Below, piece after piece: positions 11,180 to 53,033 of a DNA stretch of 64,000 bases. Below the pieces are notes generated by a model, which made no database searches, was not told the origin of the DNA, and worked only from the letters and a program-made list of their open reading frames with translations. The position numbers and the translations under genes were made by a program. This DNA is from Lachnospiraceae bacterium UBA4348 (GTDB lineage: Bacteria > Bacillota > Clostridia > Lachnospirales > Lachnospiraceae), in contig DGTA01000057.1 in the NCBI GenBank assembly GCA_002394165.1, positions 8,477 through 72,476 on the forward strand. The letters are read 5' to 3'. Position 1 is the stretch's first letter, and each line of letters begins with the position of its first letter.

Positions 11180-11770
11180 ATGAAATGGATGATCGCGTCC
11201 GATCTTCACGGATCGGCTTACTACTGCCGGAAAATGCTGGAAGCCTTTGAACGGGAGAAGGCAGACCGGCTGCTTTTTCTTGGAGATATTCTCTACCACG
11301 GCCCGCGAAACGATCTGCCGCGGGATTACGCCCCGAAGGAAGTCATCCGGATGATGAATTCCCTCTCAGACCGGATCCTGGCCGTGCGGGGCAACTGCGA
11401 GGCCGAGGTGGACCAGATGGTCCTGGACTTCCCGGTCCTCGCTTCCTACGCCGTTCTGGAGCTGGGCGCCGGCACGGGCAGCAGCGGCAGCATCATATAC
11501 GCCACCCACGGCCATGTCTGGAACATTGACAACCTGCCGCCTCTTAAAAAAGGCGACATCCTGCTGTACGGACATACGCACGTGCCGCTTTGCGAAGAAA
11601 AAGACGGGATACATTGCCTGAACCCGGGGTCCGTGTCACTGCCCAAAGAAGGCAGCGAACACAGCTATATGACGCTCGAAAACGGCGTATTTTCCTGGGT
11701 TTCTTTTGAGGGGTCTGACCCTTTTCGCACGTTGAAGTGCAAAAGTTTTGAGGGGGAGGAGATAAGGTGA
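11180..11770 (+). CDS. YfcE/MJ0936-type metallophosphoesterase; the 3' end runs into a family-A repeat
   Basis: MKWMIASDLHGS...LGDILYHGPRN...VRGNCE...THGH...YGHTH. ATG at 11180 follows GGAGG. The last roughly 20 codons (EGSDPFRTLKCKSFEGEEIR) are encoded by the repeat. Confidence 0.85.
   Translation: MKWMIASDLHGSAYYCRKMLEAFEREKADRLLFLGDILYHGPRNDLPRDYAPKEVIRMMNSLSDRILAVRGNCEAEVDQMVLDFPVLASYAVLELGAGTGSSGSIIYATHGHVWNIDNLPPLKKGDILLYGHTHVPLCEEKDGIHCLNPGSVSLPKEGSEHSYMTLENGVFSWVSFEGSDPFRTLKCKSFEGEEIR
11708..11756. repeat. family-A palindromic repeat, degenerate full element
   Basis: GAGGGGTCTGACCCTTTTCGCAC-GTTGAA-GTGCAAAAG..TTTTGAGGGGG. The left arm matches 40388..40410, the loop is the reverse complement of the 40411..40416 loop, and the right arm is partly deleted. 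Confidence 0.7.
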
Positions 11771-11781
11771 ACGGGAACAGT

Positions 11782-12510
11782 ATGCTGGAGATCCGCCATT
11801 ACTCGAAATCCTACGGCGGAGGGAAGAAGGCGGCGGATGATGTGTCCCTGACCGTGGAATGCGGGGATATCTGCGGCTTTATCGGCCACAACGGCGCCGG
11901 CAAGTCGACGACGATCCGTGCTGTGGTGGGCGTCCTGGATTTTACGGAGGGCGAGATTTTTATCGGCGGGCATTCGGTGAAGGATGAACCGATGGAATGC
12001 AAGAAGATCACGGCGTATATTCCGGACAATCCGGATCTTTACGAGAACCTGACGGGCATCCAGTACCTGAATTTTATCGCGGATGTTTTTGAGCTTGGGG
12101 CCGCCGAGCGGGAGGAGCGCATCAGAAAGTACGGGGATCTGTTTGAGATCACGCGGGATCTGGGCGACCTGATCAGCTCCTATTCCCACGGGATGAAGCA
12201 GAAGGTGGCGATCATCTCCGCGCTGATCCATGAGCCGAAGCTTCTTGTGCTGGATGAGCCTTTTGTGGGCCTCGATCCGAAGGCGTCCTTTACACTGAAG
12301 GAGATCATGCATGAAATGTGTGATCGGGGGACGGCGGTCTTCTTTTCAACTCATGTGCTCGATGTGGCGGAGAAGCTGTGCAACAAGGTGGCAATCATAA
12401 AGCACGGCAGGATCATTTTTTCCGGGACCATGGAAGAACTGACGGAAGGCCAGTCACTGGAAGAGGCATTTCTGGAGGCGGATCATGAAGAAATACAGCA
12501 TTCTTCTTAA
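11782..12510 (+). CDS. ABC transporter ATP-binding protein
   Basis: Walker A GHNGAGKST, signature SHGMKQKV, Walker B LLVLDEP. Confidence 0.9.
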   Translation: MLEIRHYSKSYGGGKKAADDVSLTVECGDICGFIGHNGAGKSTTIRAVVGVLDFTEGEIFIGGHSVKDEPMECKKITAYIPDNPDLYENLTGIQYLNFIADVFELGAAEREERIRKYGDLFEITRDLGDLISSYSHGMKQKVAIISALIHEPKLLVLDEPFVGLDPKASFTLKEIMHEMCDRGTAVFFSTHVLDVAEKLCNKVAIIKHGRIIFSGTMEELTEGQSLEEAFLEADHEEIQHSS

Positions 12511-14074
12511 GACGATGCTCCTGTCCTCCAGCCTGGGGAATATCCGCAGGCACACGTATGACAGGAAAAAGAAAAGAAAGATCATCGGAAGCCGCATCGG
12601 TCTTACGCTCCTGTGCGCGATGCTCATTGCCTACAGCATCCTGATCTGTGTCGGCTTCGGAAAGATCGGGATGACCGGTGCGGTCCCGGTGATGTGTGCC
12701 CTGGTGATCAGCTCGCTCGCTTTTGTATTCACCTTTTTGAAGTCCAACGGATATCTGTTCAACTTTAAGGAATACGACATGCTGATGGCGCTCCCGTTTA
12801 AGACGAGGACCGTCGCCGCCTGCAAGTTCCTGTATATGTATATCAAGAGCCTGCCATGGTACCTGAGCATCTCCGCTGCCATGCTGGCCGGATATGCGTA
12901 CTATGCTCGGCCGCCCTTCTATACCTATATCATATGGATCATCCTGTCCCTGATCCTGCCGGTGATCCCGATGCTGGCGGCGTCATTTATCGGATTTCTG
13001 ATCGCGAAGATCAGCTCGGGATTTAAGAAGACCAACCTGATCCAGACGATCTTTACCTTCGTGATCATCGTCCTGAGCTTCAGCCTGCGCTACATTATAG
13101 AGGCGCTGATCGGAGACGATAAGATAGAAGCGGTTTTAAGCGGCATTTCGATGATGACAGGCCGGGCTTCGGGGATCTACTTTCCGGCCGGGTGGTTTGC
13201 CGCTGCGGTCACCAGGACGGATATTCCGAAGATGCTGGCACTGACCGGACTTAGCTTCGCGTTATTCGCAGCGGTGTTTTACATCGTCGGAAACTCCTAC
13301 AGGCAGATCAACTCCGCGATCAGGTCCCATGCCGCGTCGAAGAACTACCGGATGAGAAGACAGAAGAAGAGCAGTGTGGTCAATGCGATCGCCTTCAAGG
13401 AATTCAAGAGGCTGACCGGATCCACCGTGTACATGACGAACGCTGCGGTCGGCGAGCTTCTGGCCGCCCTGCTGGGGATCATCACCCTTGTTCTCGGCTT
13501 TGACAGGATCATCGCGATCATCACGCAGGGGGCGCCCATCGACCCGGCCATACTCCAACCGGCCATCCCCTTTGTCGTGTACTTCTTTGTCGGCATGGTG
13601 GCGACCACGGCATGCTCCCCGTCGCTGGAGGGAAAGAACTACTGGATCCTGCAGAGCCTGCCGATCGAAAAAAAGACGATCCGCCAGGGAAAAATGTTGT
13701 TTAATATGTACCTTACAGTTCCCTTTATGCTGTTTGCCGTACTTTGTATGTGTCTGTCATTCAAAGTTCCACTCCTCAACACGGTGCTGTACCTGATCCT
13801 GGGAGTCGCGCTGTGCGCCTTCTCCACAGCCTGGGGCTGCGTTTGCGGAGTCTGGCATATGCGCACAGACTGGGAGAACGAGGTGGAAGTGATCAAGCAG
13901 GGTGCGGCGGTCGTCATCTACATGCTGCCCAACATGCTTGCTGCGATGGGGCTGGTCGTGCTGATGGTGTGGCTTGGCACAAAGATGGATCATACGCTGC
14001 TGACAGTCATCGCAATCGGGATCGCCGGGCTGCTGGCGGGAGTGTGCTACAAGATCGCGATCCGGCTCCGCTGA
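12485..14074 (+). CDS. large polytopic ABC exporter permease-like protein (529 aa)
   Basis: Overlaps the ATPase gene by 26 nt. It has 10 or more hydrophobic helices. Family assignment (putative ABC exporter type) is from memory only. Confidence 0.7.
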   Translation: MKKYSILLKTMLLSSSLGNIRRHTYDRKKKRKIIGSRIGLTLLCAMLIAYSILICVGFGKIGMTGAVPVMCALVISSLAFVFTFLKSNGYLFNFKEYDMLMALPFKTRTVAACKFLYMYIKSLPWYLSISAAMLAGYAYYARPPFYTYIIWIILSLILPVIPMLAASFIGFLIAKISSGFKKTNLIQTIFTFVIIVLSFSLRYIIEALIGDDKIEAVLSGISMMTGRASGIYFPAGWFAAAVTRTDIPKMLALTGLSFALFAAVFYIVGNSYRQINSAIRSHAASKNYRMRRQKKSSVVNAIAFKEFKRLTGSTVYMTNAAVGELLAALLGIITLVLGFDRIIAIITQGAPIDPAILQPAIPFVVYFFVGMVATTACSPSLEGKNYWILQSLPIEKKTIRQGKMLFNMYLTVPFMLFAVLCMCLSFKVPLLNTVLYLILGVALCAFSTAWGCVCGVWHMRTDWENEVEVIKQGAAVVIYMLPNMLAAMGLVVLMVWLGTKMDHTLLTVIAIGIAGLLAGVCYKIAIRLR

Positions 14075-14166
14075 CATAGAAAAGGCCTGCAAAATATTCT
14101 TGCGAACGCGCGGAGGATATGTTATGTTATTCCCAGTATATTTCTAGAAAGAAAGGGGAATACCTG

Positions 14167-14334
14167 ATGAGAAAAGAATATGAAGCTCCGAAGGCAGAGA
14201 AACTTGATTTTGATTATTCAGAAGTCGTAACAGCCAGCAATACGGGTACGGGCTGCATGATCGCCGGTATGACCACAACATATTCGGATGGAAGCGGCAA
14301 CACTTATCAGACATCTGTTCCCGGCGACGAATAA
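14167..14334 (+). CDS. candidate RiPP precursor peptide (55 aa)
   Basis: MRKEYEAPKAEKLDFDYSEVVTAS / NTGTGCMIAGMTTTYSDGSGNTYQTSVPGDE. The N-half is charged and leader-like; the C-half is Gly/Thr/Ser-rich with one Cys. AAGGGG RBS. It lies directly upstream of the rSAM/SPASM gene. Confidence 0.6.
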   Translation: MRKEYEAPKAEKLDFDYSEVVTASNTGTGCMIAGMTTTYSDGSGNTYQTSVPGDE

Positions 14335-14350
14335 AGAGAAATTGTAAAAA

Positions 14351-14377
14351 GCGCCTCGTTTTCGAGGCGTTTTTTTG
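14351..14377 (+). terminator. intrinsic terminator/attenuator between precursor and maturase
   Basis: GCGCCTCG-TTTT-CGAGGCG followed by TTTTTTT, 17 nt after the precursor stop. Confidence 0.65.
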
Positions 14378-14400
14378 ATTTGACGGAGGTCGTGTTCAAG

Positions 14401-15549
14401 ATGAAGGAGCCGAAAAATGGCTTTGAATACCTGAAAAGAAGGCATGAGCAGGAACTGGGGAAAAACGTCCGTTTTTCCGGATTCAAACGGTACCTGGAAG
14501 TGAAGGCCCGTGAAAAGGGAACCCCTGTCAGCGGCCAGTTTGAACTGACGCCGCTCTGCAATTTCGACTGCAGGATGTGTTACGTCCACCTCCGGAAAGA
14601 CCAGCTTAAAACGCAGGATGTCATGACGGCGGATCAGTGGAAGCAGCTGATCAGGCAGGCCTGGGAGATGGGCCTGATCAGGGCGACCCTGACAGGGGGT
14701 GAGTGCCTGGCGTACCCCGGGTTTAAAGAGATCTATCTGTATCTGCACAGCCTCGGCTGCGAGGTCGTGGCGCTGACGAACGGTTTTTTGATCGATGACG
14801 ACTGGATCCGCTTTTTCAGGGAGCATCCGCCGGCGCAGATCCGGATCACCCTCTACGGATACGATGACGATACTTATGAAAATGTGACGGGTCGAAGATG
14901 CTTTGACCGGATCCGCGCGAATATCCTGAAGCTGAAGGATGCGGGGATGCCGCTGACGATCTCGGTGACGCCCAACCGCTTTCTCGGGGAGGGAGTCTTT
15001 GAGACGATCCGCACGGCCAAAAGCCTGTGCCAAAGCGTCCTGATCAGCAATACGCTGTTTGCCCCGAGGCAGGAGACCGGACGGGCGCAGGAAGGGCATA
15101 AGATCAGCGATGAAGATTACCTTCGGATGTACACGCTGATAAATGAGCTGGACGGAAAGGAGACGGTCCCGATCCCCAAAGACGAGCTGCCGCCGGCGGG
15201 CGGTCCTTCCCATGAGTGCAGGGAATGCGGGGTCGAGTGCGGCGCCGGACGATCGGGCTTCAGTATAGACTGGAAGGGAACCATGCGTCCCTGCACCCGG
15301 TTTTATGCGATCGAGGCGTTTCCGCTGCGGGACGGATTTGAAAAAGCCTGGCGGGAAATGAACCGGGTGGCCGCTTCCTGGCCGCGGGTCGCCGAATGTG
15401 AGGGCTGCGCCTACGCCACGGCCTGCATCAGGTGTCCGGCCAATATGCTTGCCTATGCCGAAGCGGGAGTACAGCCGGTTAAAATGTGTGAGAGGACAAT
15501 GTTTTTCGTGGAAAACGGGGTCTGGAACATCCCGGAATGCGATGACTGA
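14401..15549 (+). CDS. radical SAM enzyme with C-terminal SPASM domain (peptide maturase-like)
   Basis: CNFDCRMC (CxxxCxxC) and a GGECLAYPGF GGE motif. C-terminal Cys clusters are CRECGVECGAGRSGFSIDWKGTMRPC (Gx4C) and CEGCAYATACIRC. Confidence 0.85.
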   Translation: MKEPKNGFEYLKRRHEQELGKNVRFSGFKRYLEVKAREKGTPVSGQFELTPLCNFDCRMCYVHLRKDQLKTQDVMTADQWKQLIRQAWEMGLIRATLTGGECLAYPGFKEIYLYLHSLGCEVVALTNGFLIDDDWIRFFREHPPAQIRITLYGYDDDTYENVTGRRCFDRIRANILKLKDAGMPLTISVTPNRFLGEGVFETIRTAKSLCQSVLISNTLFAPRQETGRAQEGHKISDEDYLRMYTLINELDGKETVPIPKDELPPAGGPSHECRECGVECGAGRSGFSIDWKGTMRPCTRFYAIEAFPLRDGFEKAWREMNRVAASWPRVAECEGCAYATACIRCPANMLAYAEAGVQPVKMCERTMFFVENGVWNIPECDD

Positions 15550-15606
15550 AGAAAAGCCCGGGAGGGCAGTTTGCGAACGATTGATGTTTCGGACGAGGAC
15601 ATTTGA

Positions 15607-16821
15607 ATGAATACAGACGAGAAAAAACAATTATATAAGATCCTGATCATCCTCGGCGCCGTGGCGGTGCTGCTCAGCGTGATCCTCACGGTGTTCTTCC
15701 GGACGGATCTTGTGATGAAGCTGATCGGCCGGGCCATGACTGTCCTGGAGCCGTTTTTCTGGGGAATTGCGATCGCTTATATCCTGCATCCGATCAGCGC
15801 ATCCATCGGGCGCTTCCTGACAAAGATCGAGCGAAAGATCAGTAAAAAGCAAAGGCCCGGCCTGATCAGGACGATCAGCGTCCTGGGCGCCATCATTTTT
15901 ATGTTCGCGGTCATCACCCTGCTTCTTCTGGCACTGCTTCCCGAGCTGATCTCCAGCATCAGCAGCCTGATCAGTCAGCTGCCCGGTGCGCTGCGAAGCT
16001 TTGAGGAGTGGGTCAGCTCTCTCGACCACGGCGGGACCTCGCATGAGGTGGTCACCACTATCCAGGCGGCGGTCGACACGCTGGGCGACAAGCTGCAGAA
16101 TTACCTGCAGACCGATGTGCTGCCCAACTTGGAGACACTGGTCACCAACGTGACGAGCAGCTTCATGGGCCTCCTTTCCGTGGTGAAGAATATCGGCCTC
16201 GGATGCATCATCTCCGCCTATATCATGGGCAGCTGGGAAAAATTCATCGCACAGGCGGGCATGATCGTCTACGCGCTCTTCCCGAAAAAAACAGCCGACT
16301 GGATCCGCCGGGAAGCGAAGTTCACCGACCGGATGTTCAGCGGTTTTATCCACGGGAAGGTATTCGATTCACTGATCGTGGGCCTGATCTGCTTTGTCTT
16401 CTGTATGATCACAAAAATGCCGTACGCACTGCTTGTCAGCGTTATTGTGGGTGTGACGAACATCATCCCGTTTTTCGGGCCTTACCTGGGAGCCATTCCC
16501 TCCGCTCTGCTGATCCTGACCGTCTCGCCGGTCAAATGCCTGATCTTTGTTGTCTTCATCATTCTGCTCCAGCAGTTTGACGGAAACTACCTCGGACCGG
16601 CTATCCTGGGCGACCGTCTGGGCATCTCCGGGATCTGGATCCTGTTTTCCATCCTGGTCTTCAGCTCCCTGTGGGGGATCCTTGGCATGCTGATCGGAGT
16701 GCCGGTGTTCGCGGTGATTTATGACCTGATCAGCAGCCTTGTCGCTGCCGGGCTCAGAAAGCGCGGGCAGGAAAAGCGCCTGGCCAGATATGAAGATACA
16801 TTCCACAGCGAAAAAAAGTAA
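15607..16821 (+). CDS. AI-2E family (PerM/YhhT-like) transporter
   Basis: Eight-TM-like profile. The conserved C-part NIIPFFGPYLGAIP...LLQQFDGNYLGPAILG is present. Confidence 0.85.
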   Translation: MNTDEKKQLYKILIILGAVAVLLSVILTVFFRTDLVMKLIGRAMTVLEPFFWGIAIAYILHPISASIGRFLTKIERKISKKQRPGLIRTISVLGAIIFMFAVITLLLLALLPELISSISSLISQLPGALRSFEEWVSSLDHGGTSHEVVTTIQAAVDTLGDKLQNYLQTDVLPNLETLVTNVTSSFMGLLSVVKNIGLGCIISAYIMGSWEKFIAQAGMIVYALFPKKTADWIRREAKFTDRMFSGFIHGKVFDSLIVGLICFVFCMITKMPYALLVSVIVGVTNIIPFFGPYLGAIPSALLILTVSPVKCLIFVVFIILLQQFDGNYLGPAILGDRLGISGIWILFSILVFSSLWGILGMLIGVPVFAVIYDLISSLVAAGLRKRGQEKRLARYEDTFHSEKK

Positions 16822-17640: not shown

Positions 17641-17702
17641 CAGGAGACATATCTTCTGACTCACTAAAAAAGCGAGTCAGGAGATACATCCCCTGACTCA
17701 CC
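17641..17702. repeat. family-C palindromic repeat (GAGTCAGGAGATACATCCCCTGACTC plus a degenerate partner)
   Basis: 17675..17699 differs by 1 nt from 39775..39799. The stem is GAGTCAGG/CCTGACTC. It lies between convergent genes. Confidence 0.8.
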
Positions 17703-17707
17703 GGCAT

Positions 17708-18007
17708 TTACTCTGTTACAAGATAGTTGGCGTTCACATAGCCTCTTCCATTGGTTTTGGGTGAATATACCCACACATAAGGATTTCCGTCCCGGCCGAC
17801 GGTATTGCCGCCTTCGATAAAGACGTAATCTCCGTTGAAGAGCTCGTGGCCGCGCTGCTCATTGCCGTGGTCATAATTAGGCTGGGTGCGCAGTGCCAGG
17901 TAGCCGGTTTTGAGGTTGGCTACTTTTCTCCTGTAGATGTTGCCGGTGGCATTACCGCCGCTTACGCCGGCAAGTTCTTCTTCGTTGATTTTATTGAGAT
18001 CGGTCAT
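17708..18007 (-). CDS. double-glycine (bacteriocin-type) leader fused to an SH3-like domain, paralog 1
   Basis: MTDLNKINEEELAGVSGG|NATGNIY... Hydrophobic residues at -4, -7, -12 and -15 fit the GG-leader pattern. The core GYLALRTQP...GDYVFIEG...YVWVYSPKTNGRGYVNANYL looks like bacterial SH3. GGAGG RBS. Confidence 0.75.
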   Translation of the reverse strand: MTDLNKINEEELAGVSGGNATGNIYRRKVANLKTGYLALRTQPNYDHGNEQRGHELFNGDYVFIEGGNTVGRDGNPYVWVYSPKTNGRGYVNANYLVTE

Positions 18008-18059: not shown

Positions 18060-18089
18060 ATTATACGTTGGAGTGCGGCTGAAATCTAC
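18060..18089 (-). promoter_or_regulatory. putative sigma-70-type promoter of GG-SH3 paralog 1
   Basis: On the minus strand this reads TGTAGATT-N17-TATAAT (the -10 is the reverse complement of 18060..18065). The same TGTRGAT-N17-TATAAT-A layout occurs at 34260..34289. Confidence 0.35.
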
Positions 18090-18220
18090 AGGAGCCGGGA
18101 GAATTTGTGATCCGGGCGAAAATCTGTTCGATTGTCCGCTTTTTTGGACCCTGCCTTTGAGATACTGCAGATAACAGGAAACACTGTTGAAGTTATCTCA
18201 GATCAAAGGAGGCGGATGAC

Positions 18221-33170: not shown

Positions 33171-34223
33171 ATGAAAAAGGGAATTGCAGGTATGGCAGCG
33201 ATGTTCCTGACGGTTGCTGCGGCGGTGGTGATGGTGCCTGCCGAAGCTTCTCTGGCAGGAGAAGGGGCAGCGCAGGGGGAGCCGGTGCCGGTGAAGGTTC
33301 TGCTGCTTCCCAAATTTGAAGTGGACAATATGGCCGGCGATTTTCCCGGTGAGGCACAGTATTATTATGAACATTACCTGACCGGGGCGGAGGAATATGA
33401 GATCCCGGACGGCGGGGAAGATTCCTGTCTTTATTATAAGGATGGTGTCGCTCTTTATGTGCTGGGTATGGGGAAGGTCAACTCCGCTGTGGGCACCATG
33501 GCGGTCCTCACCGACAGCCGCTTTGATTTTTCACAGGCCTATATCATCTCGACAGGCTGCGCCGGATCCTCCGTCGGGACGACGGTCATGGGCGATGTCT
33601 TTGTCATCACGGCGGCGGTGGATTATGATCTGGGCCATCACGCGGATGGACGTGAGCTGGCTGATCCGGAGGGGACGACCTGGTTTCATGACTCCGATTA
33701 TGATTCTTCGGGGGCGGTCATCCTTGATCAGGAGCTGATGGATAAGGTATACGCACTGGTGAAGGATACGCCCCTCGAGACGACGGAGAAGACCCGGAAT
33801 TTCATGAAGTACGCTTTTGACGGCGAGGACTGGGCACTGCGCGACCCCATGGTGCTGCGGGGGACCACGGTAAGCGGCGACAATTACTGGAAGGGCGTGC
33901 ACGGACATGAAAACGCGGTGCTCATGGCACAGACCTATCAATGCCCGGATCCCTATGCGCTGACGGAGATGGAGGATGTAGCCGTCGCCCTGGCGGCGCG
34001 GCGGATGGGGATGCTTGAGAGGATGATCATCATCCGTGACAGTGTGAATATGGATGTGTTCATGCCCGGGGTCACCCCGGAGAGCCTGTGGGGAGAGAGC
34101 GGAACGCCGGACCTTGCGCAGGAGGGAAGTGTGGAAGCGGCCGATATTTTCGCGACCGCCATGAAGAATAATTTCGAGGTGGGGCGGATCATTATTGACA
34201 GCATCCTTGAAGGAAGCTTATGA
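33171..34223 (+). CDS. secreted purine nucleoside permease (NUP)-family / phosphorylase-fold protein
   Basis: Signal peptide from the ATG at 33171. VKVLLLPKFE...ALYVLGMGKVNSAVGTMAVLTDSRFDFSQAYIISTGCAG pattern. Confidence 0.65.
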   Translation: MKKGIAGMAAMFLTVAAAVVMVPAEASLAGEGAAQGEPVPVKVLLLPKFEVDNMAGDFPGEAQYYYEHYLTGAEEYEIPDGGEDSCLYYKDGVALYVLGMGKVNSAVGTMAVLTDSRFDFSQAYIISTGCAGSSVGTTVMGDVFVITAAVDYDLGHHADGRELADPEGTTWFHDSDYDSSGAVILDQELMDKVYALVKDTPLETTEKTRNFMKYAFDGEDWALRDPMVLRGTTVSGDNYWKGVHGHENAVLMAQTYQCPDPYALTEMEDVAVALAARRMGMLERMIIIRDSVNMDVFMPGVTPESLWGESGTPDLAQEGSVEAADIFATAMKNNFEVGRIIIDSILEGSL

Positions 34224-34259
34224 TGATATTGTAATCTTTTAAATTTTCCTTTGATTTTT

Positions 34260-34289
34260 TGTGGATGTTTTGATGCGGCTGCGTATAAT
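34260..34289 (+). promoter_or_regulatory. putative promoter of GG-SH3 paralog 2
   Basis: TGTGGAT-N17-TATAAT-A, the same layout as upstream of paralog 1. Confidence 0.35.
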
Positions 34290-34379
34290 ACATCAGAACG
34301 ACAAAAGAACCTGCAAAAGACAAGCGCAGGGGTCGTCGGGAAAAGAAAAAACCAATTATCAAAAATGGAGGATAAAAAA

Positions 34380-34688
34380 ATGATGGAAGATATCAAGAAA
34401 ATCAATGATCAGGCACTTGAGGATGTTACCGGCGGTACCGTTGGTTATCAGGGACAGTGGATGACAGTCCGCAATCTGTCGGACGGCTATCTGGCAATCA
34501 GGACAGCTCCGGCTTTCCAGTATGAGAACGAGATCAACCACATCGGTCTTTACAACGGTGAGCAGGTTCAGATCGCCGGCCAGCCGGTTCAGGGCTCCGG
34601 CATCAACGGCACAAAAGCCACCTACGCATATGTCTATGCTCCCAAGTTCGGCTGCTACGGCTATGTGAACGCTTACTACCTTGGCTGA
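34380..34688 (+). CDS. double-glycine leader fused to an SH3-like domain, paralog 2
   Basis: GGAGG lies 8 nt before the ATG at 34380. MMEDIKKINDQALEDVTGG|TVGYQGQW... The core GYLAIRTAP...GEQVQIAG...YAYVYAPKFGCYGYVNAYYLG aligns with 17708..18007. Confidence 0.75.
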   Translation: MMEDIKKINDQALEDVTGGTVGYQGQWMTVRNLSDGYLAIRTAPAFQYENEINHIGLYNGEQVQIAGQPVQGSGINGTKATYAYVYAPKFGCYGYVNAYYLG

Positions 34689-34731: not shown

Positions 34732-34761
34732 AGGCCGCGGCACTTAGGTGCTGCGGCCTTT
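34732..34761. terminator. hairpin shared by convergent genes
   Basis: AGGCCGCGGCAC-TTAG-GTGCTGCGGCCT (12 bp including one G-U), flanked by an A-run and TTT. The stop codon of the minus-strand DMT gene lies in the loop. Confidence 0.55.
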
Positions 34762-35637
34762 GTCATGACCGGCTTTTTGCGGGGCCTTTTGTCCGGACTC
34801 TTCCAGGCAGCAGGACAGAACCACCGCCCCGATGATAACAGCCGCCCCGCACACTTCTCTGGCAGTGGGTGCCTGCCCCAGAAGGATCCAGGCAAAGAAA
34901 ATGGCATAAACGGTCTCCATGGAGGAGATGATCCCGGCCAGCTGCGCGCTCAGATGCCGGAGACCGGTGATAAACAGCGTGTGGGCAATCGCAGTCATCA
35001 CAACGCCGAGGAGGAGCAGCAGGCCGATATCCGCCGCGGACGGAGACAGTTCTGCTCCCAGCACGACCGGCAGCAGGAGGATGGCAGCTGCCGCCTGCTC
35101 ATAAAAGGCGGTCTTCGTACCGCCGCAGCTGGTGACAAGACTTTTGTTCATCAGCGTCAGCACGGCATAGGCGAGGGAAGAAATCATGCCGATGACAATG
35201 CCCTGGAAATACCGGTCTTCTAAAGTAAATGCCGGGATCGTGATCACAACGCCGGCCAGGACGGCCAGCGCTGTCAGCACGTCAGCGGCACGGGGCTTTT
35301 TGTGGGAGAGGGCCGGCTCCAGGAAGGTGACGAACAGCGGAAACGAGGAAAACGTGATCGTCCCGATCGCAACGCCTGAACGCCGGACGGATTCCATAAA
35401 AGCCCACCAGTGCAGCGCCAGGACAGCGCCCGCCAGGATCAGCTTAAGAAGTTCCACCCTTGAACGGACTTTGAACGGCATCCGCCGGATCAGCATGTAA
35501 AGTCCTAAGGTGACGGAAGAAAACAGGACCCGGCCAAAGGTTATTCCCGAGGCGGGCAGGCTGATCCATCTGGCGAACAGGCCGGCCAGGCCGAACAGCA
35601 GGACGGCGATGTTGACCGGGAGGATGGCTTTTTTCAC
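34744..35637 (-). CDS. DMT superfamily (EamA-like) transporter
   Basis: Ten hydrophobic helices with an internally duplicated EamA-like pattern. GTG start. Confidence 0.85.
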   Translation of the reverse strand: MKKAILPVNIAVLLFGLAGLFARWISLPASGITFGRVLFSSVTLGLYMLIRRMPFKVRSRVELLKLILAGAVLALHWWAFMESVRRSGVAIGTITFSSFPLFVTFLEPALSHKKPRAADVLTALAVLAGVVITIPAFTLEDRYFQGIVIGMISSLAYAVLTLMNKSLVTSCGGTKTAFYEQAAAAILLLPVVLGAELSPSAADIGLLLLLGVVMTAIAHTLFITGLRHLSAQLAGIISSMETVYAIFFAWILLGQAPTAREVCGAAVIIGAVVLSCCLEESGQKAPQKAGHDKGRST

Positions 35638-36237: not shown

Positions 36238-36466
36238 AGATACCTCCCGAATTGAATGCGCGCCGTGCACGCGATAAAAGCTGCCGTGTCCGGTTCCGGA
36301 TCTATTTTACCATCCGGCGGTTCCAGGCACAATTATTAAAGAACCATAAAGCCCTCTTCCGGTTCATTGCGCTTGAAAAGAAAACGTGCTATTCTTTTCG
36401 CAGAAAGTGTGCCGTACCTGCCGGGCGGCAGCATTTGAGTATAAATGCCGAAAGGAGATTGGAAAC

Positions 36467-36805
36467 ATGTTTGGCGGTATTTTTGGAAGATTTTTAGCGC
36501 TGATATTTGCTTTTTCGATGGGTGTCAGTTTTGCCTCGGAGCAGCCGGCGACAGATTCGGAGTTGAAGCAGAAGGTACAGCAGCACATGGATGTGATCGC
36601 GGATGAATCGGCGGCGATCGTGGATGATGTAATCGACGAAGCCCGCAAGGATGAGCGTGTGCAGAAGGCGGAAGAATTCGCCAATGATGTCAATGAGATC
36701 GTCGGCAATACGAAGCAGGATATCAAAGATCACTTCGGTCCGGAGGAGGAGACGGAGGATCTGTCCGAGGCCGTCGGTCTTGAAGAGGCTACGGAAGGCA
36801 TCTGA
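36467..36805 (+). CDS. small secreted acidic protein
   Basis: AAAGGAGA RBS. The MFGGIFGRFLALIFAFSMGVSFA signal is followed by a Glu/Asp-rich, helical-looking sequence. Confidence 0.6.
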   Translation: MFGGIFGRFLALIFAFSMGVSFASEQPATDSELKQKVQQHMDVIADESAAIVDDVIDEARKDERVQKAEEFANDVNEIVGNTKQDIKDHFGPEEETEDLSEAVGLEEATEGI

Positions 36806-36848
36806 TCCGCGGCTTGGCGACAGGAACATGCTTTTGTTTTGATCAGTC

Positions 36849-36876
36849 ACTGCCCGGTGTTTTCCGGGCAGTTTTT
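36849..36876 (+). terminator. intrinsic terminator
   Basis: ACTGCCCGG-TGTTTT-CCGGGCAGT followed by TTTT. Confidence 0.75.
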
Positions 36877-36949
36877 ACGTTTCACAGGATAATTGATTAT
36901 TGAAAGGGAGAGACACAGCCGGGGCAGCCCGAAGCTGTGCAGACGACCT

Positions 36950-39748
36950 ATGCTGACGATCGATCAAGTTTACAAGGAGTACCGGACCGGCACACTGGTG
37001 CAGAAAGCGCTGGACGGAGTCTCCATCTCTTTCAGAGAACGGGAGTTTGTGGCCATTCTTGGGCCGAGCGGTTCCGGAAAAACGACGCTGCTCAATGTGA
37101 TCGGCGGACTGGACCGCTATGACAGCGGTGAGATGACCTTCAACTCCGTTCCGACCAGCAGCTACGGAAACCGGGAGTGGGATACATATCGAAATCATAC
37201 GATCGGTTTTATCTTCCAGAGCTACAACCTGATCCCCCACCAGAGCATCCTCTCGAACGTGGAGCTTGCGCTGACGCTGGCAGGCGTAAAGAAGGAGGAG
37301 CGGCTGAAGAGGGCTAAGGAAGCGCTGGACAGGGTGGGACTCCTCGATCAGGCGTTCAAGAAGCCGATGCAGCTGTCCGGCGGACAGATGCAGAGGGTGG
37401 CGATCGCGCGCGCACTGGTCAACCGCCCGTCCATCCTGCTGGCCGATGAGCCGACGGGAGCCCTCGACTCGGATACCGGCGAGCAGGTGATGAAGCTTCT
37501 CAAGGAGGTATCGCAGGACCACCTGGTCATCATGGTCACGCACAACCCGGATCTGGCCAGGCGCTACGCGACAAGGATCGTCCAGCTGCGGGACGGGAAG
37601 ATCACGGACGACTCCGATCCGTACGAGCCCGATGAGGAAAAGCCCGCCGAAAAGAGTGGCATGCCGGGGCGGAAAAGCTCCATGTCATTTCTGACGGCTC
37701 TCTCCCTGTCTGTCTCAAACCTGCTCTCCAAGAAGGCGCGCACTATTCTGGTGGCGTTTGCCGCGTCGATCGGGATCGTCGGGATCGCGCTGATCCTTTC
37801 GCTCTCAAACGGGGCGAACGCGTATATACACCAGATGGAGAGGGATTCCCTGAGCCAGTATCCCATCGAGATCACCAGCTCGTCCTTCTCTATGGAGGAG
37901 ACGATGATGACGTTCGCCGCCATGCGGCAGAGTGCCGCCTCCACGGACGGGGACGGGATCACCGAACAGCAGATGATGGGCGGGATGCTCTCCTCGGCGA
38001 GCATCAACGACCTGGCTTCCCTGAAGCGCTGGTTCGACAGCGGCTACAGCGGGATGGAGGAGTACACGCGCGGGATCGATTACAGCTACGGGATCAGCCC
38101 GCAGATCTACCGCCTGCAGGAGGACGGGTACCGTCAGGTGAACCCGGACCAGACGATGGCGGCGTTCGGCGTGAGTATGGATGACGCGCTGACCGGCGCC
38201 ATGAGCGGATACAGCTTCAACGAAATGTTCCTGCCCCTGCCGGACAATCGGGCCCTGTATGAGGGGGATTACGACCTGCTGGCCGGCTCGTGGCCGAAGA
38301 AGGACACGGACCTGGTCCTGGTGCTGTCCGGTTCGGGCGGCATCCCGGACTTTATGCTCTACACGATGGGGCTGAAGGATTCCGATGAGCTCAATGAGCA
38401 GATCCAGAATGTGGTCGCCGGCAACGGCTCCGGGATCAGGAGCGAGGACCTGCAGGACAACCGGGTGTACGATCCCGAGGAGTTCCTCGGCATTTCCTTC
38501 AAGCTGCTTCCGGCTTATTCATTGTTTGAAAAAGATGAGAACGTGGGGCTCTGGCTGGATCAGTCCGGCAACGAGAAGAAAGTCCTGAAGCTGCTTGAAA
38601 AAGCGGAGGATATGAATATCGTCGGCGTGGTGCGCCCTTCGGAGGATGTTTCCTTCGGGATCCTGGGGATCGGCCTGGAGTATCAGCCCGGGCTGCTTAA
38701 ACGCCTGATGCGGGAGGCCGGAGAGAGTGACGTGGTCCTTGCCCAGAACGCATCGCCCGATGTCAATATCCTGACGGGGACGGCCTTCGGCGAGGATGAT
38801 TTCTCCTCGATGGACTCTTATCTGGATATGATCGAGCTGCATCCGGAGCATCTGGACGAGGCGGTCTCCATCCGCTGGGACAGGCTCGGGGAGCTGGAGA
38901 CGGACGATACGCGCCTGAGCGCCAAACGCCTGGTGAGGATCACCAGGGAGCTTTCGAGAACCGGAAAATCCCCGACACTCGAGAAGATGTTTGAGGCGGC
39001 GCTGCCTCTCATGAAAGACCTGATCGAGATCGATGAAGAGAAGATCGGCGACGTCATATCGTTTGCGATGGATGAGAACAGGATGCAGGAGATGTATTCC
39101 GCCCGCGCCGCTGCCCAGAGCGCGACCTTAAGCGGAAACCTGACCCGGTTCGGGTACGCCGATGAAGAGACGCCCATGAGGGTGACCATCTATCCGAGTG
39201 ATTTTGACAGCAAGAGCGAGGTGATCCGCCTGCTCGACGCCTACAACGAGGCGGTGAAGGAAGAAGGATATGAAGAGAAGGTGATCTCCTACACGGACTA
39301 TGTCGGTGCGCTGATGTCTTCCGTAACGACGATCATCGATGTGATCACCTACGTGCTGATCGCATTCGTGGCCGTCTCCCTGGTGGTGTCTTCGATCATG
39401 ATCGGGATCATCACCTATATCTCCGTCCTGGAGAGGCGCAAGGAGATCGGCATACTGCGTGCGATGGGCGCTTCGCGCTACAACATTACGCAGGTGTTCA
39501 ACGCGGAGACCTTTATTATCGGGCTGCTGTCAGGCGCCTTCGGCATGGGTATCACCCTGGCGGCGCTGGTCCCGATCAATATTGTGATCCAGAAGCTGGC
39601 AGAGCAGCGGCATATCCGCGCCTTCCTGCCGCCCGGAGCCGGAGCGGTGCTGATCGTCCTTTGCATCGTCCTGACGTTTATCGGCGGGTTCATTCCGTCC
39701 AGGCAGGCGGCCAGGCAGGATCCGGTAGCAGCGCTTCGAAGCGAATGA
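36950..39748 (+). CDS. MacB-like fused ABC ATPase plus FtsX-type permease
   Basis: GPSGSGKTT, LSGGQMQRVAIARAL and LLADEPTGALD, then a large extracytoplasmic region and a C-terminal FtsX-like 4-TM block (EIGILRAMGA). Confidence 0.9.
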   Translation: MLTIDQVYKEYRTGTLVQKALDGVSISFREREFVAILGPSGSGKTTLLNVIGGLDRYDSGEMTFNSVPTSSYGNREWDTYRNHTIGFIFQSYNLIPHQSILSNVELALTLAGVKKEERLKRAKEALDRVGLLDQAFKKPMQLSGGQMQRVAIARALVNRPSILLADEPTGALDSDTGEQVMKLLKEVSQDHLVIMVTHNPDLARRYATRIVQLRDGKITDDSDPYEPDEEKPAEKSGMPGRKSSMSFLTALSLSVSNLLSKKARTILVAFAASIGIVGIALILSLSNGANAYIHQMERDSLSQYPIEITSSSFSMEETMMTFAAMRQSAASTDGDGITEQQMMGGMLSSASINDLASLKRWFDSGYSGMEEYTRGIDYSYGISPQIYRLQEDGYRQVNPDQTMAAFGVSMDDALTGAMSGYSFNEMFLPLPDNRALYEGDYDLLAGSWPKKDTDLVLVLSGSGGIPDFMLYTMGLKDSDELNEQIQNVVAGNGSGIRSEDLQDNRVYDPEEFLGISFKLLPAYSLFEKDENVGLWLDQSGNEKKVLKLLEKAEDMNIVGVVRPSEDVSFGILGIGLEYQPGLLKRLMREAGESDVVLAQNASPDVNILTGTAFGEDDFSSMDSYLDMIELHPEHLDEAVSIRWDRLGELETDDTRLSAKRLVRITRELSRTGKSPTLEKMFEAALPLMKDLIEIDEEKIGDVISFAMDENRMQEMYSARAAAQSATLSGNLTRFGYADEETPMRVTIYPSDFDSKSEVIRLLDAYNEAVKEEGYEEKVISYTDYVGALMSSVTTIIDVITYVLIAFVAVSLVVSSIMIGIITYISVLERRKEIGILRAMGASRYNITQVFNAETFIIGLLSGAFGMGITLAALVPINIVIQKLAEQRHIRAFLPPGAGAVLIVLCIVLTFIGGFIPSRQAARQDPVAALRSE

Positions 39749-40439: not shown

Positions 40440-40586
40440 CCCGGAAACCCGCGTGCTGTGTGGATTTTTCCGCCGTCTTTCGTATATTTTAGCAGATGAC
40501 TGAAGTGACCGGTCGTCGATAGATTTAGAAAAAAGGAAATAAACGAAAACAATCCTGAGAATATGAAAAATAAGGAGGATAGAATA

Positions 40587-41528
40587 ATGAAGATCATAAA
40601 AATGATTACATGCGGACTGATGACAGCAGTAGTTCTTGCGATGTCTGCCTGCGCTTTTAATTCTTTTGCGGAGGAGACGGTTACGGAGGCAGGGCCCCGG
40701 GAGGGCGAGTATATCATGCTTGAGAATGAGGGCCTGAAGCTGCCGGTTCCGGCTGAATTTCAGGATACGGTGGTGACCGAGATCCCGGAGAAGGGTGAGA
40801 GGAACGTTCTGTTTTCCGCCTCGGAAAAAGCCTCCATCGATGCGGCTGAGGCAAACGGGGAAAACACGGACGGTGCCGGATGGCTCTTCTCCATCCGTAT
40901 GACTGACCAGGCCGGGCTCGATGAGATGCGCACCGGCGACATGTTCGGTGAAAGGCCTTTTGCGAAGGATGAAAACGGCAACATTTACGTGCTCTGCCTG
41001 CCGACGGATGTGAGGATGGTGCGTGAGAACTATGACAACATGGAAGCTGAGCTCAAGGATTTTGAGGTCCTTACCCAGTGGGCGAGCGAGACGGTTCCCG
41101 AAATGTTTATCGAAGAGAACGGCCTGACGCCCCTCGCTGTGACCAACACCGACCTGGATATCACGCTGGCGAGGATCGCCTTTGTTCCGGAGACGAAATA
41201 CATCTTAAGCACCACGCAGTACGGAGAGCTTGAGCCGAAGGATGCCGATGCGGCTCCCTTCCTTGAAAAGCTGATGAACGATGTGACCTTTGTTCCGGCA
41301 AACGATGCTGAGGCTCCGGACGGAGAATACGTCGTGCTGCGCATCCCGGGGGAGAACGTCCGGTTCGATTTCTTCAGCAACGACAGCGAGAACCTGGTCC
41401 GCGAGGTCTGGGAAGAGCTCGGCGATGAAGCTCTGTACCGCGCAGAGTTTAAGGATGGGACTTCTTCCGTGACAAAGATCATGCAGGAGTGGTATGATGC
41501 GCTGGCCAAAGCCAACGGAAAAGAGTGA
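40587..41528 (+). CDS. secreted protein / probable lipoprotein, unknown function
   Basis: AAGGAGG lies 8 nt before the ATG at 40587. MKIIKMITCGLMTAVVLAMSAC has a lipobox-like motif. Confidence 0.7.
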   Translation: MKIIKMITCGLMTAVVLAMSACAFNSFAEETVTEAGPREGEYIMLENEGLKLPVPAEFQDTVVTEIPEKGERNVLFSASEKASIDAAEANGENTDGAGWLFSIRMTDQAGLDEMRTGDMFGERPFAKDENGNIYVLCLPTDVRMVRENYDNMEAELKDFEVLTQWASETVPEMFIEENGLTPLAVTNTDLDITLARIAFVPETKYILSTTQYGELEPKDADAAPFLEKLMNDVTFVPANDAEAPDGEYVVLRIPGENVRFDFFSNDSENLVREVWEELGDEALYRAEFKDGTSSVTKIMQEWYDALAKANGKE

Positions 41529-52512: not shown

Positions 52513-52582
52513 AGCAAAGAATGGGCAGCGCCTGCGTCACCATTTGGTGATGCGGCCCTGCCCCTTTATTATCGATACTGAT

Positions 52583-52880
52583 CAGTCATCGAAATCAAAA
52601 TCGAAATCCCAGTCGTCATCGTCATCGCAGTCTTTCCTGCATTTGGTAAAGGTTACTTCAGACTCTGTGAAACCGGCATCCTTCAACGCGGCTGCCTTGG
52701 CCTGCTGCTCGGTGGAATCCACATATCCTGGTCCTGATCGATGATCTTGCCGGCCGCCGCAAGAGCGGTTTTCTGCGCATCATCCAGTGTCGTGCCGGCC
52801 GCGAATGCGGTGCAGCTCATTCCCATTACCATTGCTCCAAGCATCATTCCTGCTGTAAGTCCGATCGTTCTTTTCTTCAT
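52583..52880 (-). pseudogene. small secreted PepSY-like protein, apparently frameshifted
   Basis: Frame 1 reads MKKRTIGLTAGMMLGAMVMGMSCTAFA..TLDDAQKTALAAAGKIIDQDQ. The sense continues in another frame: GYVDSTEQQAKAAALKDAGFTESEVTFTKCRKDCDDDDDWDFDFDFDD*. Confidence 0.5.
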
Positions 52881-53033
52881 TTTTTCTACTATCTAATAAT
52901 GTATGATATTCTGTTTTTGTAATCCGCCATCAATTTTGATGTATATGGGATGTTTTTATATACGTCGGCCGGTACCTGTATCCACGCAGGTACAGAAAAT
53001 ATTTATTTCAGCTTTTTGTGCGGGAGGTTTCTT

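Follow-up and report, generated by a model that had tools for sequence, protein, structure and literature searches.

Genes of two putative double-glycine-leader proteins with an SH3b-like domain, from a family of rumen and gut Lachnospiraceae, share a conserved promoter element

The stretch of 64,000 nucleotides from Lachnospiraceae bacterium UBA4348 analyzed here, called the window in the following (assembly GCA_002394165.1, contig DGTA01000057.1, positions 8,477 to 72,476 of the forward strand), contains two genes, A and B, whose products belong to an unannotated family of proteins of ~100 aa, found in rumen and gut Lachnospiraceae. As judged from the sequence, the products of A and B are made up of a double-glycine (GG) leader of 18-19 aa and one SH3b domain. 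Such proteins are probably non-catalytic, wall-binding SH3b proteins, exported by a peptidase-containing ATP-binding cassette transporter (PCAT) and belonging to one regulon, controlled by an alternative sigma factor or by an activator. GG leaders and SH3b domains as such are known already; the family, undescribed and unannotated, is new.

The coordinates of the two open reading frames (ORFs), as given in an earlier note on this DNA, were right on re-reading the sequence. The elements identified for each gene are as follows.

34260..34290, plus strand: promoter of A, composed of T-GTGGAT (34261-34266), 15 nt and CGTATAAT (34282-34289)
34291..34379, plus strand: 5' untranslated region (5'-UTR) of A (~85-90 nt), rich in A and C; contains a hairpin (~34299-34338) and, at 34367-34371, the ribosome-binding site (RBS) GGAGG
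34380..34688, plus strand: gene A (ORF A), ATG at 34380, stop at 34686-34688, RBS GGAGG at 34367-34371
34380..34436, plus strand: double-glycine leader of A, MMEDIKKINDQALEDVTGG, 19 aa, predicted cleavage after G19
34437..34688, plus strand: mature SH3b-like domain of A, 83 aa (TVGYQGQW...NAYYLG), plus stop
34733..34764, no strand assigned: hairpin resembling a terminator, located between gene A and the EamA gene, which converge, GGCCGCGGCAC-TTAG-GTGCTGCGGCC, then TTTGTC
18060..18090, minus strand: promoter of B, composed of T-GTAGAT (18089-18084), 16 nt and CGTATAAT (18067-18060)
18007..17708, minus strand: gene B (ORF B), ATG at 18007, stop at 17710-17708, RBS GGAGG at 18020-18016
17954..18007, minus strand: double-glycine leader of B, MTDLNKINEEELAGVSGG, 18 aa
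17708..17953, minus strand: mature part of B, an SH3b-like domain of 81 aa with predicted N-terminus NATGNIYR, plus stop; supported by the whole-length identity of 41% to A and by the family alignment
17671..17702, minus strand: intrinsic terminator of B, 14-pair stem, then TTTTTT

Each gene is a self-contained unit, provided with a promoter, a leader RNA of 50-90 nt, a strong RBS, the ORF and a terminator. The GGAGG sequence is separated from the ATG by 8 nt in gene A, and gene B is arranged alike. Both genes are monocistronic, and a terminator hairpin directly follows each stop codon. The one found downstream of A, read from the sequence, contains 11 pairs, one of them G-U, and was not listed by the terminator scan because its U-tract is too weak. 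The hairpin within the 5'-UTR of A folds marginally better than shuffled sequences (z = -1.96); it was considered as a conserved element and dropped, because it is missing from the closest orthologue, at locus L019 (family loci of other genomes are indicated by the prefix L). An Rfam scan of the whole window at the gathering threshold returned no RNA families, so the 5' leaders of A and B do not correspond to a known riboswitch or leader.

Comparison of the two proteins by BLASTP produced an end-to-end alignment with 41 identities over 100 positions and 4 gaps (E 2e-19), as expected from the whole-length similarity proposed in the earlier note, and indicates that A and B are true paralogues. 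The four protein motifs quoted there were each found in both sequences, and the spacing of the hydrophobic leader residues, at positions -4, -7, -12 and -15 before the GG, is indeed the same. No family copies beyond A and B were revealed by tblastn of the window. When other GG-leader ORFs of the window were sought by a strict leader pattern, only B was returned; the pattern is not exhaustive, because A was missed.

The leader of A ends in TGG and carries V at -4, L at -7, I at -12 and I at -15, with the two glycines at -2/-1; that of B ends in SGG, with V at -4, L at -7, E at -8, I at -12 and L at -15. At least 93 leader-bearing members were collected, and in these 93 sequences a canonical double-glycine profile is found, in line with the identity assigned to the leader by the earlier note: G is present at -1 in 92 and at -2 in all 93, V or I at -4 in 80, L at -7 in 82, E at -8 in 69, one of I, L, M or V at -12 in 89 and a hydrophobic residue at -15 in 82. 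Positions -12 and -15 are outside the pattern used to select the members. Leader length varies between 15 and 34 aa, with a median of 18. In the full-length AlphaFold2 (AF2) model of A the leader is disordered and separate from the domain.

Comparison with Pfam and NCBIfam leader models (LcnG-beta, Bacteriocin_IIc, TIGR01847) gave only sub-threshold matches, restricted to the first 20-27 residues. Residues 1-23 of B scored 16.4 bits against PF10439 Bacteriocin_IIc (cut-off 27.1) and 12.0 against TIGR01847 (cut-off 15.7), A did not match either of the two, and E values of 0.01 or lower were reached by 5 of 40 diverse family members.

The mature part of A, modelled alone by AF2, forms a seven-strand barrel (predicted local distance difference test score 93.8, predicted template modelling score 0.83). 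Foldseek comparison of this model against PDB returned SH3 domains for all top matches, among them the teichoic-acid-binding domain of SlpA, which is of SH3b type. The highest probability was 1.0 and the highest template modelling (TM) score 0.71. Against the viral models of BFVD the top match was a PlyB-like endolysin SH3b module (E 5.8e-4, 25% identity), followed by an SH3b protein of Bacillus phage PBC2 (E 2.5e-3); endolysin SH3b matches range from E 5.8e-4 to 3e-2, and the identity of mature A to these modules is 17-25%. SH3b domains bind peptidoglycan. The Pfam model SH3_3 (PF08239) matched neither A nor B; it was matched by 13 of 40 diverse single-domain members, with a best E value of 1.3e-6. 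The family profile, compared with PDB sequences, produced only a chance match (E = 1). Model, structural matches and SH3_3 matches in relatives agree with the SH3-like nature attributed earlier to the mature part. Over the 93 members this part has a median length of 82 aa, a median net charge of +1 (0 in A, +2 in B) and a grand average of hydropathy (GRAVY) of -0.25; it is a hydrophilic, near neutral, folded beta domain, containing neither amphipathic or transmembrane segments nor a catalytic domain.

Many of the relatives detected by HMMER contain 2-19 tandem copies of the domain, called as SH3_3 above threshold by Pfam. In the multi-repeat relatives found with A as query, SH3_3 scores 44-89 bits against a cut-off of 27, over stretches that overlap those matched by A (e.g. 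residues 447-499 of protein P0097). N-terminal to the SH3 repeats such proteins have a zinc ribbon or, for one of them, a domain of Ser/Thr kinase type, and we infer a membrane span in between, which would place the repeats outside the cell. In addition, three single-domain relatives (P0182, P0192, P0193) have a Sec signal peptide in place of the GG leader. Because of these two groups of relatives the domain is taken to work outside the cell, and the GG leader appears to be one of two alternative export signals found on this SH3-like domain, the other being Sec. As a separate observation, among the relatives found with A as query (P0053, 1335 aa; P0197, 752 aa), 19 tandem SH3-like copies occur in one protein and the module would also make up the extracellular portion of a Ser/Thr protein kinase; this last pairing hints at a possible function of the module as sensor for a wall-derived ligand.

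The second shared feature of A and B is the sequence located upstream of their 5' leaders. The earlier note had reported TGTRGAT-N17-TATAAT-A in front of both genes. This form holds exactly for A, on the plus strand (TGTGGAT 34260-34266, N17, TATAAT 34284-34289, then A at 34290); for B, on the minus strand, TGTAGAT is located at 18090-18084 and TATAAT at 18065-18060, so that the spacer is 18, not 17, and the element starts at 18090, not at 18089, this being the single correction that the description required. A refined consensus was defined as GT(G/A)GAT-N15/16-CGTATA(A/T)(A/T), also written CGTATAWW. Four sites match it in the window, both strands considered, against 0.02 expected from shuffled sequences, and the element is for this reason far beyond chance. 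In addition to those of A and B, the sites are:

40459..40488, plus strand: third promoter copy, TGTGGAT-N15-CGTATATT, upstream of 40587..41528
52957..52985, minus strand: fourth promoter copy, GTGGAT-N15-CGTATATA, preceding a small gene that encodes a signal peptide and has its ATG at 52880

The gene at 40587..41528, on the plus strand, encodes a secreted or lipoprotein-like protein of 313 aa containing no Pfam domain. Together, the third and fourth copies point to a regulon of extracytoplasmic proteins. The gene starting at 52880, on the minus strand, encodes 65 aa with a signal peptide, followed by an apparent frameshift into 52722..52582, where a PepSY-like motif and an acidic DWDFDFDFDD tail are found.

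The element is present upstream of A and B, of both copies at L001, of both copies at L004, and of the genes at L002, L005, L016, L017, L019 and L020; L019, L020 and L001 are A orthologues. Similarly, it precedes the B orthologues L026-L031 and L047 (in the latter as TGTGGAT-N16-CGTATAAT) and L045, a 55% relative of B, where it takes the form ATGGAT-N15-CGTATATA. At L006 it is located farther upstream, and in a distant, PCAT-linked subfamily (L018/L041) it reads GTGGAA-N16-CGTATGTA. CGTA is found in nearly all copies, L005 having TGTA. Other loci, covering 376 kb, contain 17 strict matches, each of which is located in front of a GG-leader gene or of a contig end showing synteny with such a gene. 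In one of these cases, at locus L010 (9271-9560), the promoter drives a different GG-leader peptide of 52 aa, MADMNKINNIEKHLTNEELGKVNGG|RREKIELPEVLTEEDKELLKRLTNIKL, ~0.7 kb upstream of the family gene, which does not itself carry the element.

Among orthologues and paralogues the promoter is kept down to ~40% protein identity. Common regulation is a sound inference because unconstrained non-coding sequence would not survive such divergence, and for A and B it may be regarded as well supported. The shared regulation and the conserved motif claimed in the earlier note are therefore retained: the absence of the motif from orthologous loci, named there as the case against the claim, is not what was found. 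At the -35 position the conserved element is not sigma-A-like. A scan for canonical sigma-70 promoters returned nothing for B; the candidate returned for A, TTGACA-N18-TATGAT at 34195-34224, is unrelated and was discarded, lying within the end of the upstream purine nucleoside permease-like gene (NUP).

Other upstream layouts were also noticed. At L003, L012, L015, L021 and L035, a direct repeat, TGTGAC-N5-TGTGACA, with an 11-bp period, is located ~90-130 nt upstream of the family gene; a -10 box resembling GATAnAAT lies 9-10 nt beyond it. Direct repeats of 15-17 bp are found at other loci, namely L009 (three copies), L011/L032 and L013. These alternative layouts suggest that different regulators may operate in different lineages.

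Genomic linkage to exporters was observed outside the window. At L041 an intact operon encodes, in this order, a Peptidase_C39-ABC protein of 728 aa, another ABC half-transporter, of 734 aa, and a family member of 121 aa. The same transporter pair and a family member are found at L018, where NCBIfam scores TIGR03796 and TIGR03797, the export pair of nitrile hydratase leader peptide (NHLP)-type bacteriocins. At L013, the end of a second ABC gene is followed by a GG-leader ORF of 97 aa and then by a typical family member of 100 aa. The family is thus directly linked to a GG-cleaving exporter in two subfamilies and in three other genomes (L041, L018, L013). The 97-aa ORF (L013, 402-695) begins with a GG-type leader (MKKGNRKIELDPAQMQQVGGG...) and continues with an unrelated mature part; because it is located between ABC and SH3-like genes, the exporter seems to serve more than one type of cargo. 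At L018 (5262-5800) the C39 domain lies in a different frame from the transporter body, in a region 97% identical to the intact L041 protein, and represents either an assembly frameshift of the metagenome-assembled genome (MAG) or a pseudogene.

Within the window, searches with Walker A, signature and C39 patterns and by tblastn with the L041 PCAT revealed no more than the similarity common to ABC ATPases in general. Elsewhere, the majority of family loci are orphans, like A and B. Of the proposal that the two are orphans served in trans by one exporter, the orphan part is borne out by these observations, while a single exporter is consistent with them; export of A and B in trans is plausible by analogy with the linked loci.

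An exhaustive HMMER search with A as query gave 208 matches at E values of 1e-3 or lower. The family homologues form 52 clusters at 90% identity, all of them unnamed; no Pfam or NCBIfam model covers the family, and searches of the full-text literature brought up no GG-leader protein described as carrying an SH3 domain. In the species-representative genome set 18 family loci were found, nearly all titled Lachnospiraceae (one being Porcincola), the rest being labelled Clostridia or Clostridiales, with one Ruminococcaceae; their habitat labels are mostly names of rumen MAG series or sheep gut. The B sequence recurs, identical, in several public metagenome assemblies, some of which we take to be sheep-rumen data; a Lachnospiraceae member of the sheep rumen is therefore the most likely source of the window. 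Several family paralogues are found per genome. Two subfamilies may be distinguished, the A-type, with NEINHIGL and a long QGTG..G loop, and the B-type, with NE.RG.EL and a short loop, and both are present in other genomes.

The ratio of nonsynonymous to synonymous substitution rates (dN/dS) was evaluated between family members. The calculation for A and B proposed by the earlier note was performed and gave 0.42, a value which is uninformative because dS, at 1.43, is saturated; the alignment itself is significant. Orthologue pairs were for this reason used, and gave 0.10 (A vs L019), 0.20 (A vs L001) and 0.03 (L004b vs L005), while within-genome paralogues range from 0.25 to 0.49, with no pair above 1. 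The orthologue of A is 92% identical, compared with 75-81% for the flanking NUP, EamA and GNAT genes. The low orthologue values, together with the occurrence of the two subfamilies in other genomes, argue for purifying selection on an old pair rather than for diversification, and the suggestion that A and B are diversifying paralogues was abandoned: they appear to be real coding genes under purifying selection, separated by an old subfamily split.

Several known systems resemble parts of this arrangement. PCAT1 recognizes its substrate CtA, of 90 residues (a 24-aa leader and a 66-aa cargo), via L(-7), L(-12) and position -4 (PMC6959990). CtA of Clostridium thermocellum and class II bacteriocin precursors, as GG-leader PCAT cargo, are similar to the family in the short leader ending in GG, in the hydrophobic residues at -4, -7, -12 and -15, in the acidic one at -8, in a cargo of tens of residues and, in some genomes, in the location of the gene directly after transporter genes. 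Unlike the usual cargo, which is a short hydrophobic or cationic peptide, the family carries an SH3b domain of 81-83 aa, which is conserved and whose fold is modelled with confidence; the majority of copies are orphans at a distance from any transporter, no immunity gene is found and the curated leader models are not reached. In the same way, the mature part differs from class II bacteriocins, being neither small, cationic or hydrophobic and membrane-active, nor flanked by an immunity gene. NHLP/Nif11 precursors, the usual cargo of TIGR03796/TIGR03797, have a nitrile-hydratase-like or Nif11-like leader of ~70-80 aa before the GG. The family leader, in contrast, is 15-34 aa long, and the family precursors gave no NCBIfam matches.

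The SH3b domains of endolysins and wall hydrolases (PlyB-like, PBC2; SH3_3) share with the family the fold, the SH3_3 signature found in many members and the repeated arrangement of larger relatives. The family domain, however, stands alone, with no catalytic partner, has a GG leader where those enzymes are released by Sec or holin, and is marked by the motifs GYLAIRTAP, NEINHIGL and GYVNA.YL.

In the case of MAM, from Faecalibacterium prausnitzii, glycines 20/21 are conserved, the gene is located beside a C39 PCAT in some strains, and cleavage and export by the PCAT have been proposed (PMC8836110). This small gut clostridial protein is the nearest precedent for a non-bacteriocin PCAT cargo, the likeness being one of published description. 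MAM is longer than the family proteins. On the side of the promoter, the sigma-W consensus of Bacillus subtilis is TGAAAC-N16-CGTA, and CGT in the -10 and AAC in the -35 mark the promoters of extracytoplasmic function (ECF) sigma factors (PMC5758882). The family element resembles these in the CGTA opening the -10, the spacer of 15-16 nt, the close adherence to the consensus and the extracytoplasmic targets; it differs in the -35, GT(G/A)GA(T/A), and in the -10, which runs on into a full TATAAT-like hexamer.

Combining these data, the following course of events seems probable. Transcription would start from the shared, non-housekeeping promoter GT(G/A)GAT-N15/16-CGTATAWW, for which motif, conservation and enrichment are observed; its reader may be one alternative sigma factor, or sigma-A assisted by a dedicated activator, and the same promoter would drive at least two Sec-type secreted proteins in this genome. 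Recognition of the precursor would rely on V(-4), L(-7) and I(-12), with cleavage behind the GG and export by a C39-peptidase ABC exporter. This would be of the NHLP type (TIGR03796 + TIGR03797), linked to the family in three other genomes, and would here be encoded elsewhere in the genome. The released domain of 81-83 aa may then bind peptidoglycan or a teichoic-acid-like glycopolymer, either of the producer or of its neighbours, this being the least certain step; action by binding is proposed because no catalytic domain is present. Possible roles would be masking, competition with SH3b-targeted lysins, adhesion or signalling.

A number of observations weigh against this course of events. The promoter is not found throughout the family, since other upstream elements are used at about half of its loci, and the AAC typical of ECF promoters is missing from the -35 box. 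No sigma-factor genes, and no cognate sigma/anti-sigma pair such as usually regulates itself from its own motif, were found in the window or at any locus by a crude region 2/region 4 pattern search, run without an HMM search. The window does not contain a C39 peptidase domain or a PCAT gene, A and B score under every Pfam and NCBIfam threshold, and the Foldseek E values against PDB are weak (~0.1). The extracellular role of A and B is a guess from the modelled fold. Some of these points may be read in favor of the view that the GG is not a processing site and that A and B are small cytoplasmic SH3-like proteins, with a coincidental resemblance to a leader, since no exporter is found in the window and the curated leader models fail for both. 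This we consider extremely improbable, given the conservation of leader positions -1, -2, -4, -7, -8, -12 and -15 over 93 members, the predicted disorder of the leader, apart from the domain, the occurrence of homologous domains with Sec signals or after zinc-ribbon or kinase domains, and the operon linkage to C39 transporters in three genomes.

The proteins might instead be true bacteriocins, unmodified, PCAT-exported and of about class II size, which kill or inhibit relatives via a wall precursor or receptor, with immunity encoded elsewhere. The leader is of bacteriocin type, with sub-threshold matches to Bacteriocin_IIc, TIGR01847, Lactococcin and L_biotic_typeA, the transporters linked at L041, L018 and L013 are of the NHLP export type, several paralogues occur per genome, the same promoter serves a different 52-aa GG peptide at L010, and a mature size of ~9 kDa is within the cargo range of PCATs (PMC6959990). 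However, no conserved adjacent immunity-like gene was found at ~25 distinct loci, the hydrophilic, near neutral mature part, devoid of amphipathic or transmembrane segments, is unlike membrane-active class II bacteriocins, and its fold is that of a binding module with no catalytic domain. Strong purifying selection and conservation across genomes also contrast with the rapid diversification usual in toxins. The bacteriocin reading is weakened by these data, and appears rather unlikely. A developmental regulon, for instance in sporulation, is a very unlikely setting, in which SH3b proteins, under control of a stage-specific sigma factor, would cross a membrane and bind the peptidoglycan of nascent cortex or wall, and would not act from cell to cell. 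It would account for a conserved promoter of non-sigma-A type common to other extracytoplasmic proteins, and would agree with the general ability of SH3b domains to bind peptidoglycan. The motif is presumably unlike the consensus sequences of SigE, SigK, SigF and SigG of Bacillus and Clostridium, with CGTA against a CATA-type -10, which speaks against this setting. MAM of Faecalibacterium, a GG-leader protein encoded near PCAT and sporulation genes (PMC8836110), may be quoted in its favor; no sporulation genes, however, were seen next to any family locus.

The preferred reading, of PCAT-exported wall-binding proteins under common control, may be carried further, to a dedicated regulon of rumen Lachnospiraceae, with its own sigma factor or activator for GTGGAT-N15-CGTATAWW, whose output would include free, catalytically inert SH3b domains, exported via PCAT, which coat, or compete for, wall sites. 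In this full form it is a doubtful proposal. If true, it would define a new functional class of GG-leader cargo, acting by coating or competition and not by killing or signalling; the producer might, for example, be shielded from SH3b-targeted phage endolysins or bacteriolysins, or these might be blocked on its neighbours.

To our knowledge, PCATs and GG leaders have been described almost exclusively with short bacteriocins, pheromones and peptides that are synthesized on the ribosome and modified after translation (RiPPs). The family described here pairs a GG/PCAT-type route with a conserved, folded, putatively wall-binding domain, present in several copies per genome in a major fibre-degrading group of the rumen. 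Should the mechanism be true, the cargo range of PCATs would be widened, and a small cell-wall-targeting module would be available ready-made, together with its export tag, for Lachnospiraceae. The conserved promoter would define a regulon and offer a handle on the regulator and the inducing conditions of secreted proteins in the rumen. Because no Pfam or NCBIfam model exists, a new family model would annotate hundreds of hypothetical proteins.

The genomic surroundings of the family vary by locus. Gene A is located between NUP and the convergent EamA transporter gene, a position which is syntenic in L019, L020 and L001; the second copy of L001 lies between EamA and nitroreductase genes. Gene B has a DUF6591/PG_binding_1 gene on one side and an alpha/beta hydrolase gene on the other, and other members occur in unrelated housekeeping contexts. 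On the plus strand downstream of A, region 36386-39748 encodes a small secreted protein (139 aa) and a MacB-like ABC ATPase-FtsX fusion of 951 aa, the latter at 36893..39748, 2.2 kb from A. An orthologous pair (56% and 74% identity) is located directly upstream of a B-type family member at L015 (6549-9867). The fusion was evaluated as exporter or immunity protein and rejected, as it contains no peptidase domain and the association is found in two lineages only; the proximity of the pair to family genes could reflect a functional link, in immunity or export, or a remnant of synteny.

A RiPP-like cluster, at 11767-16821 on the plus strand, is located 1-6 kb from gene B and is composed as follows.

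11767-12510, plus strand: ABC ATPase
12485-14074, plus strand: ABC_tran_2 permease with 12 transmembrane segments
14167-14334, plus strand: peptide of 55 aa, MRKEYEAPKAEKLDFDYSEVVTAS...
14380-15549, plus strand: radical-SAM enzyme with a Cys-rich C-terminus
15607-16821, plus strand: AI-2E family transporter

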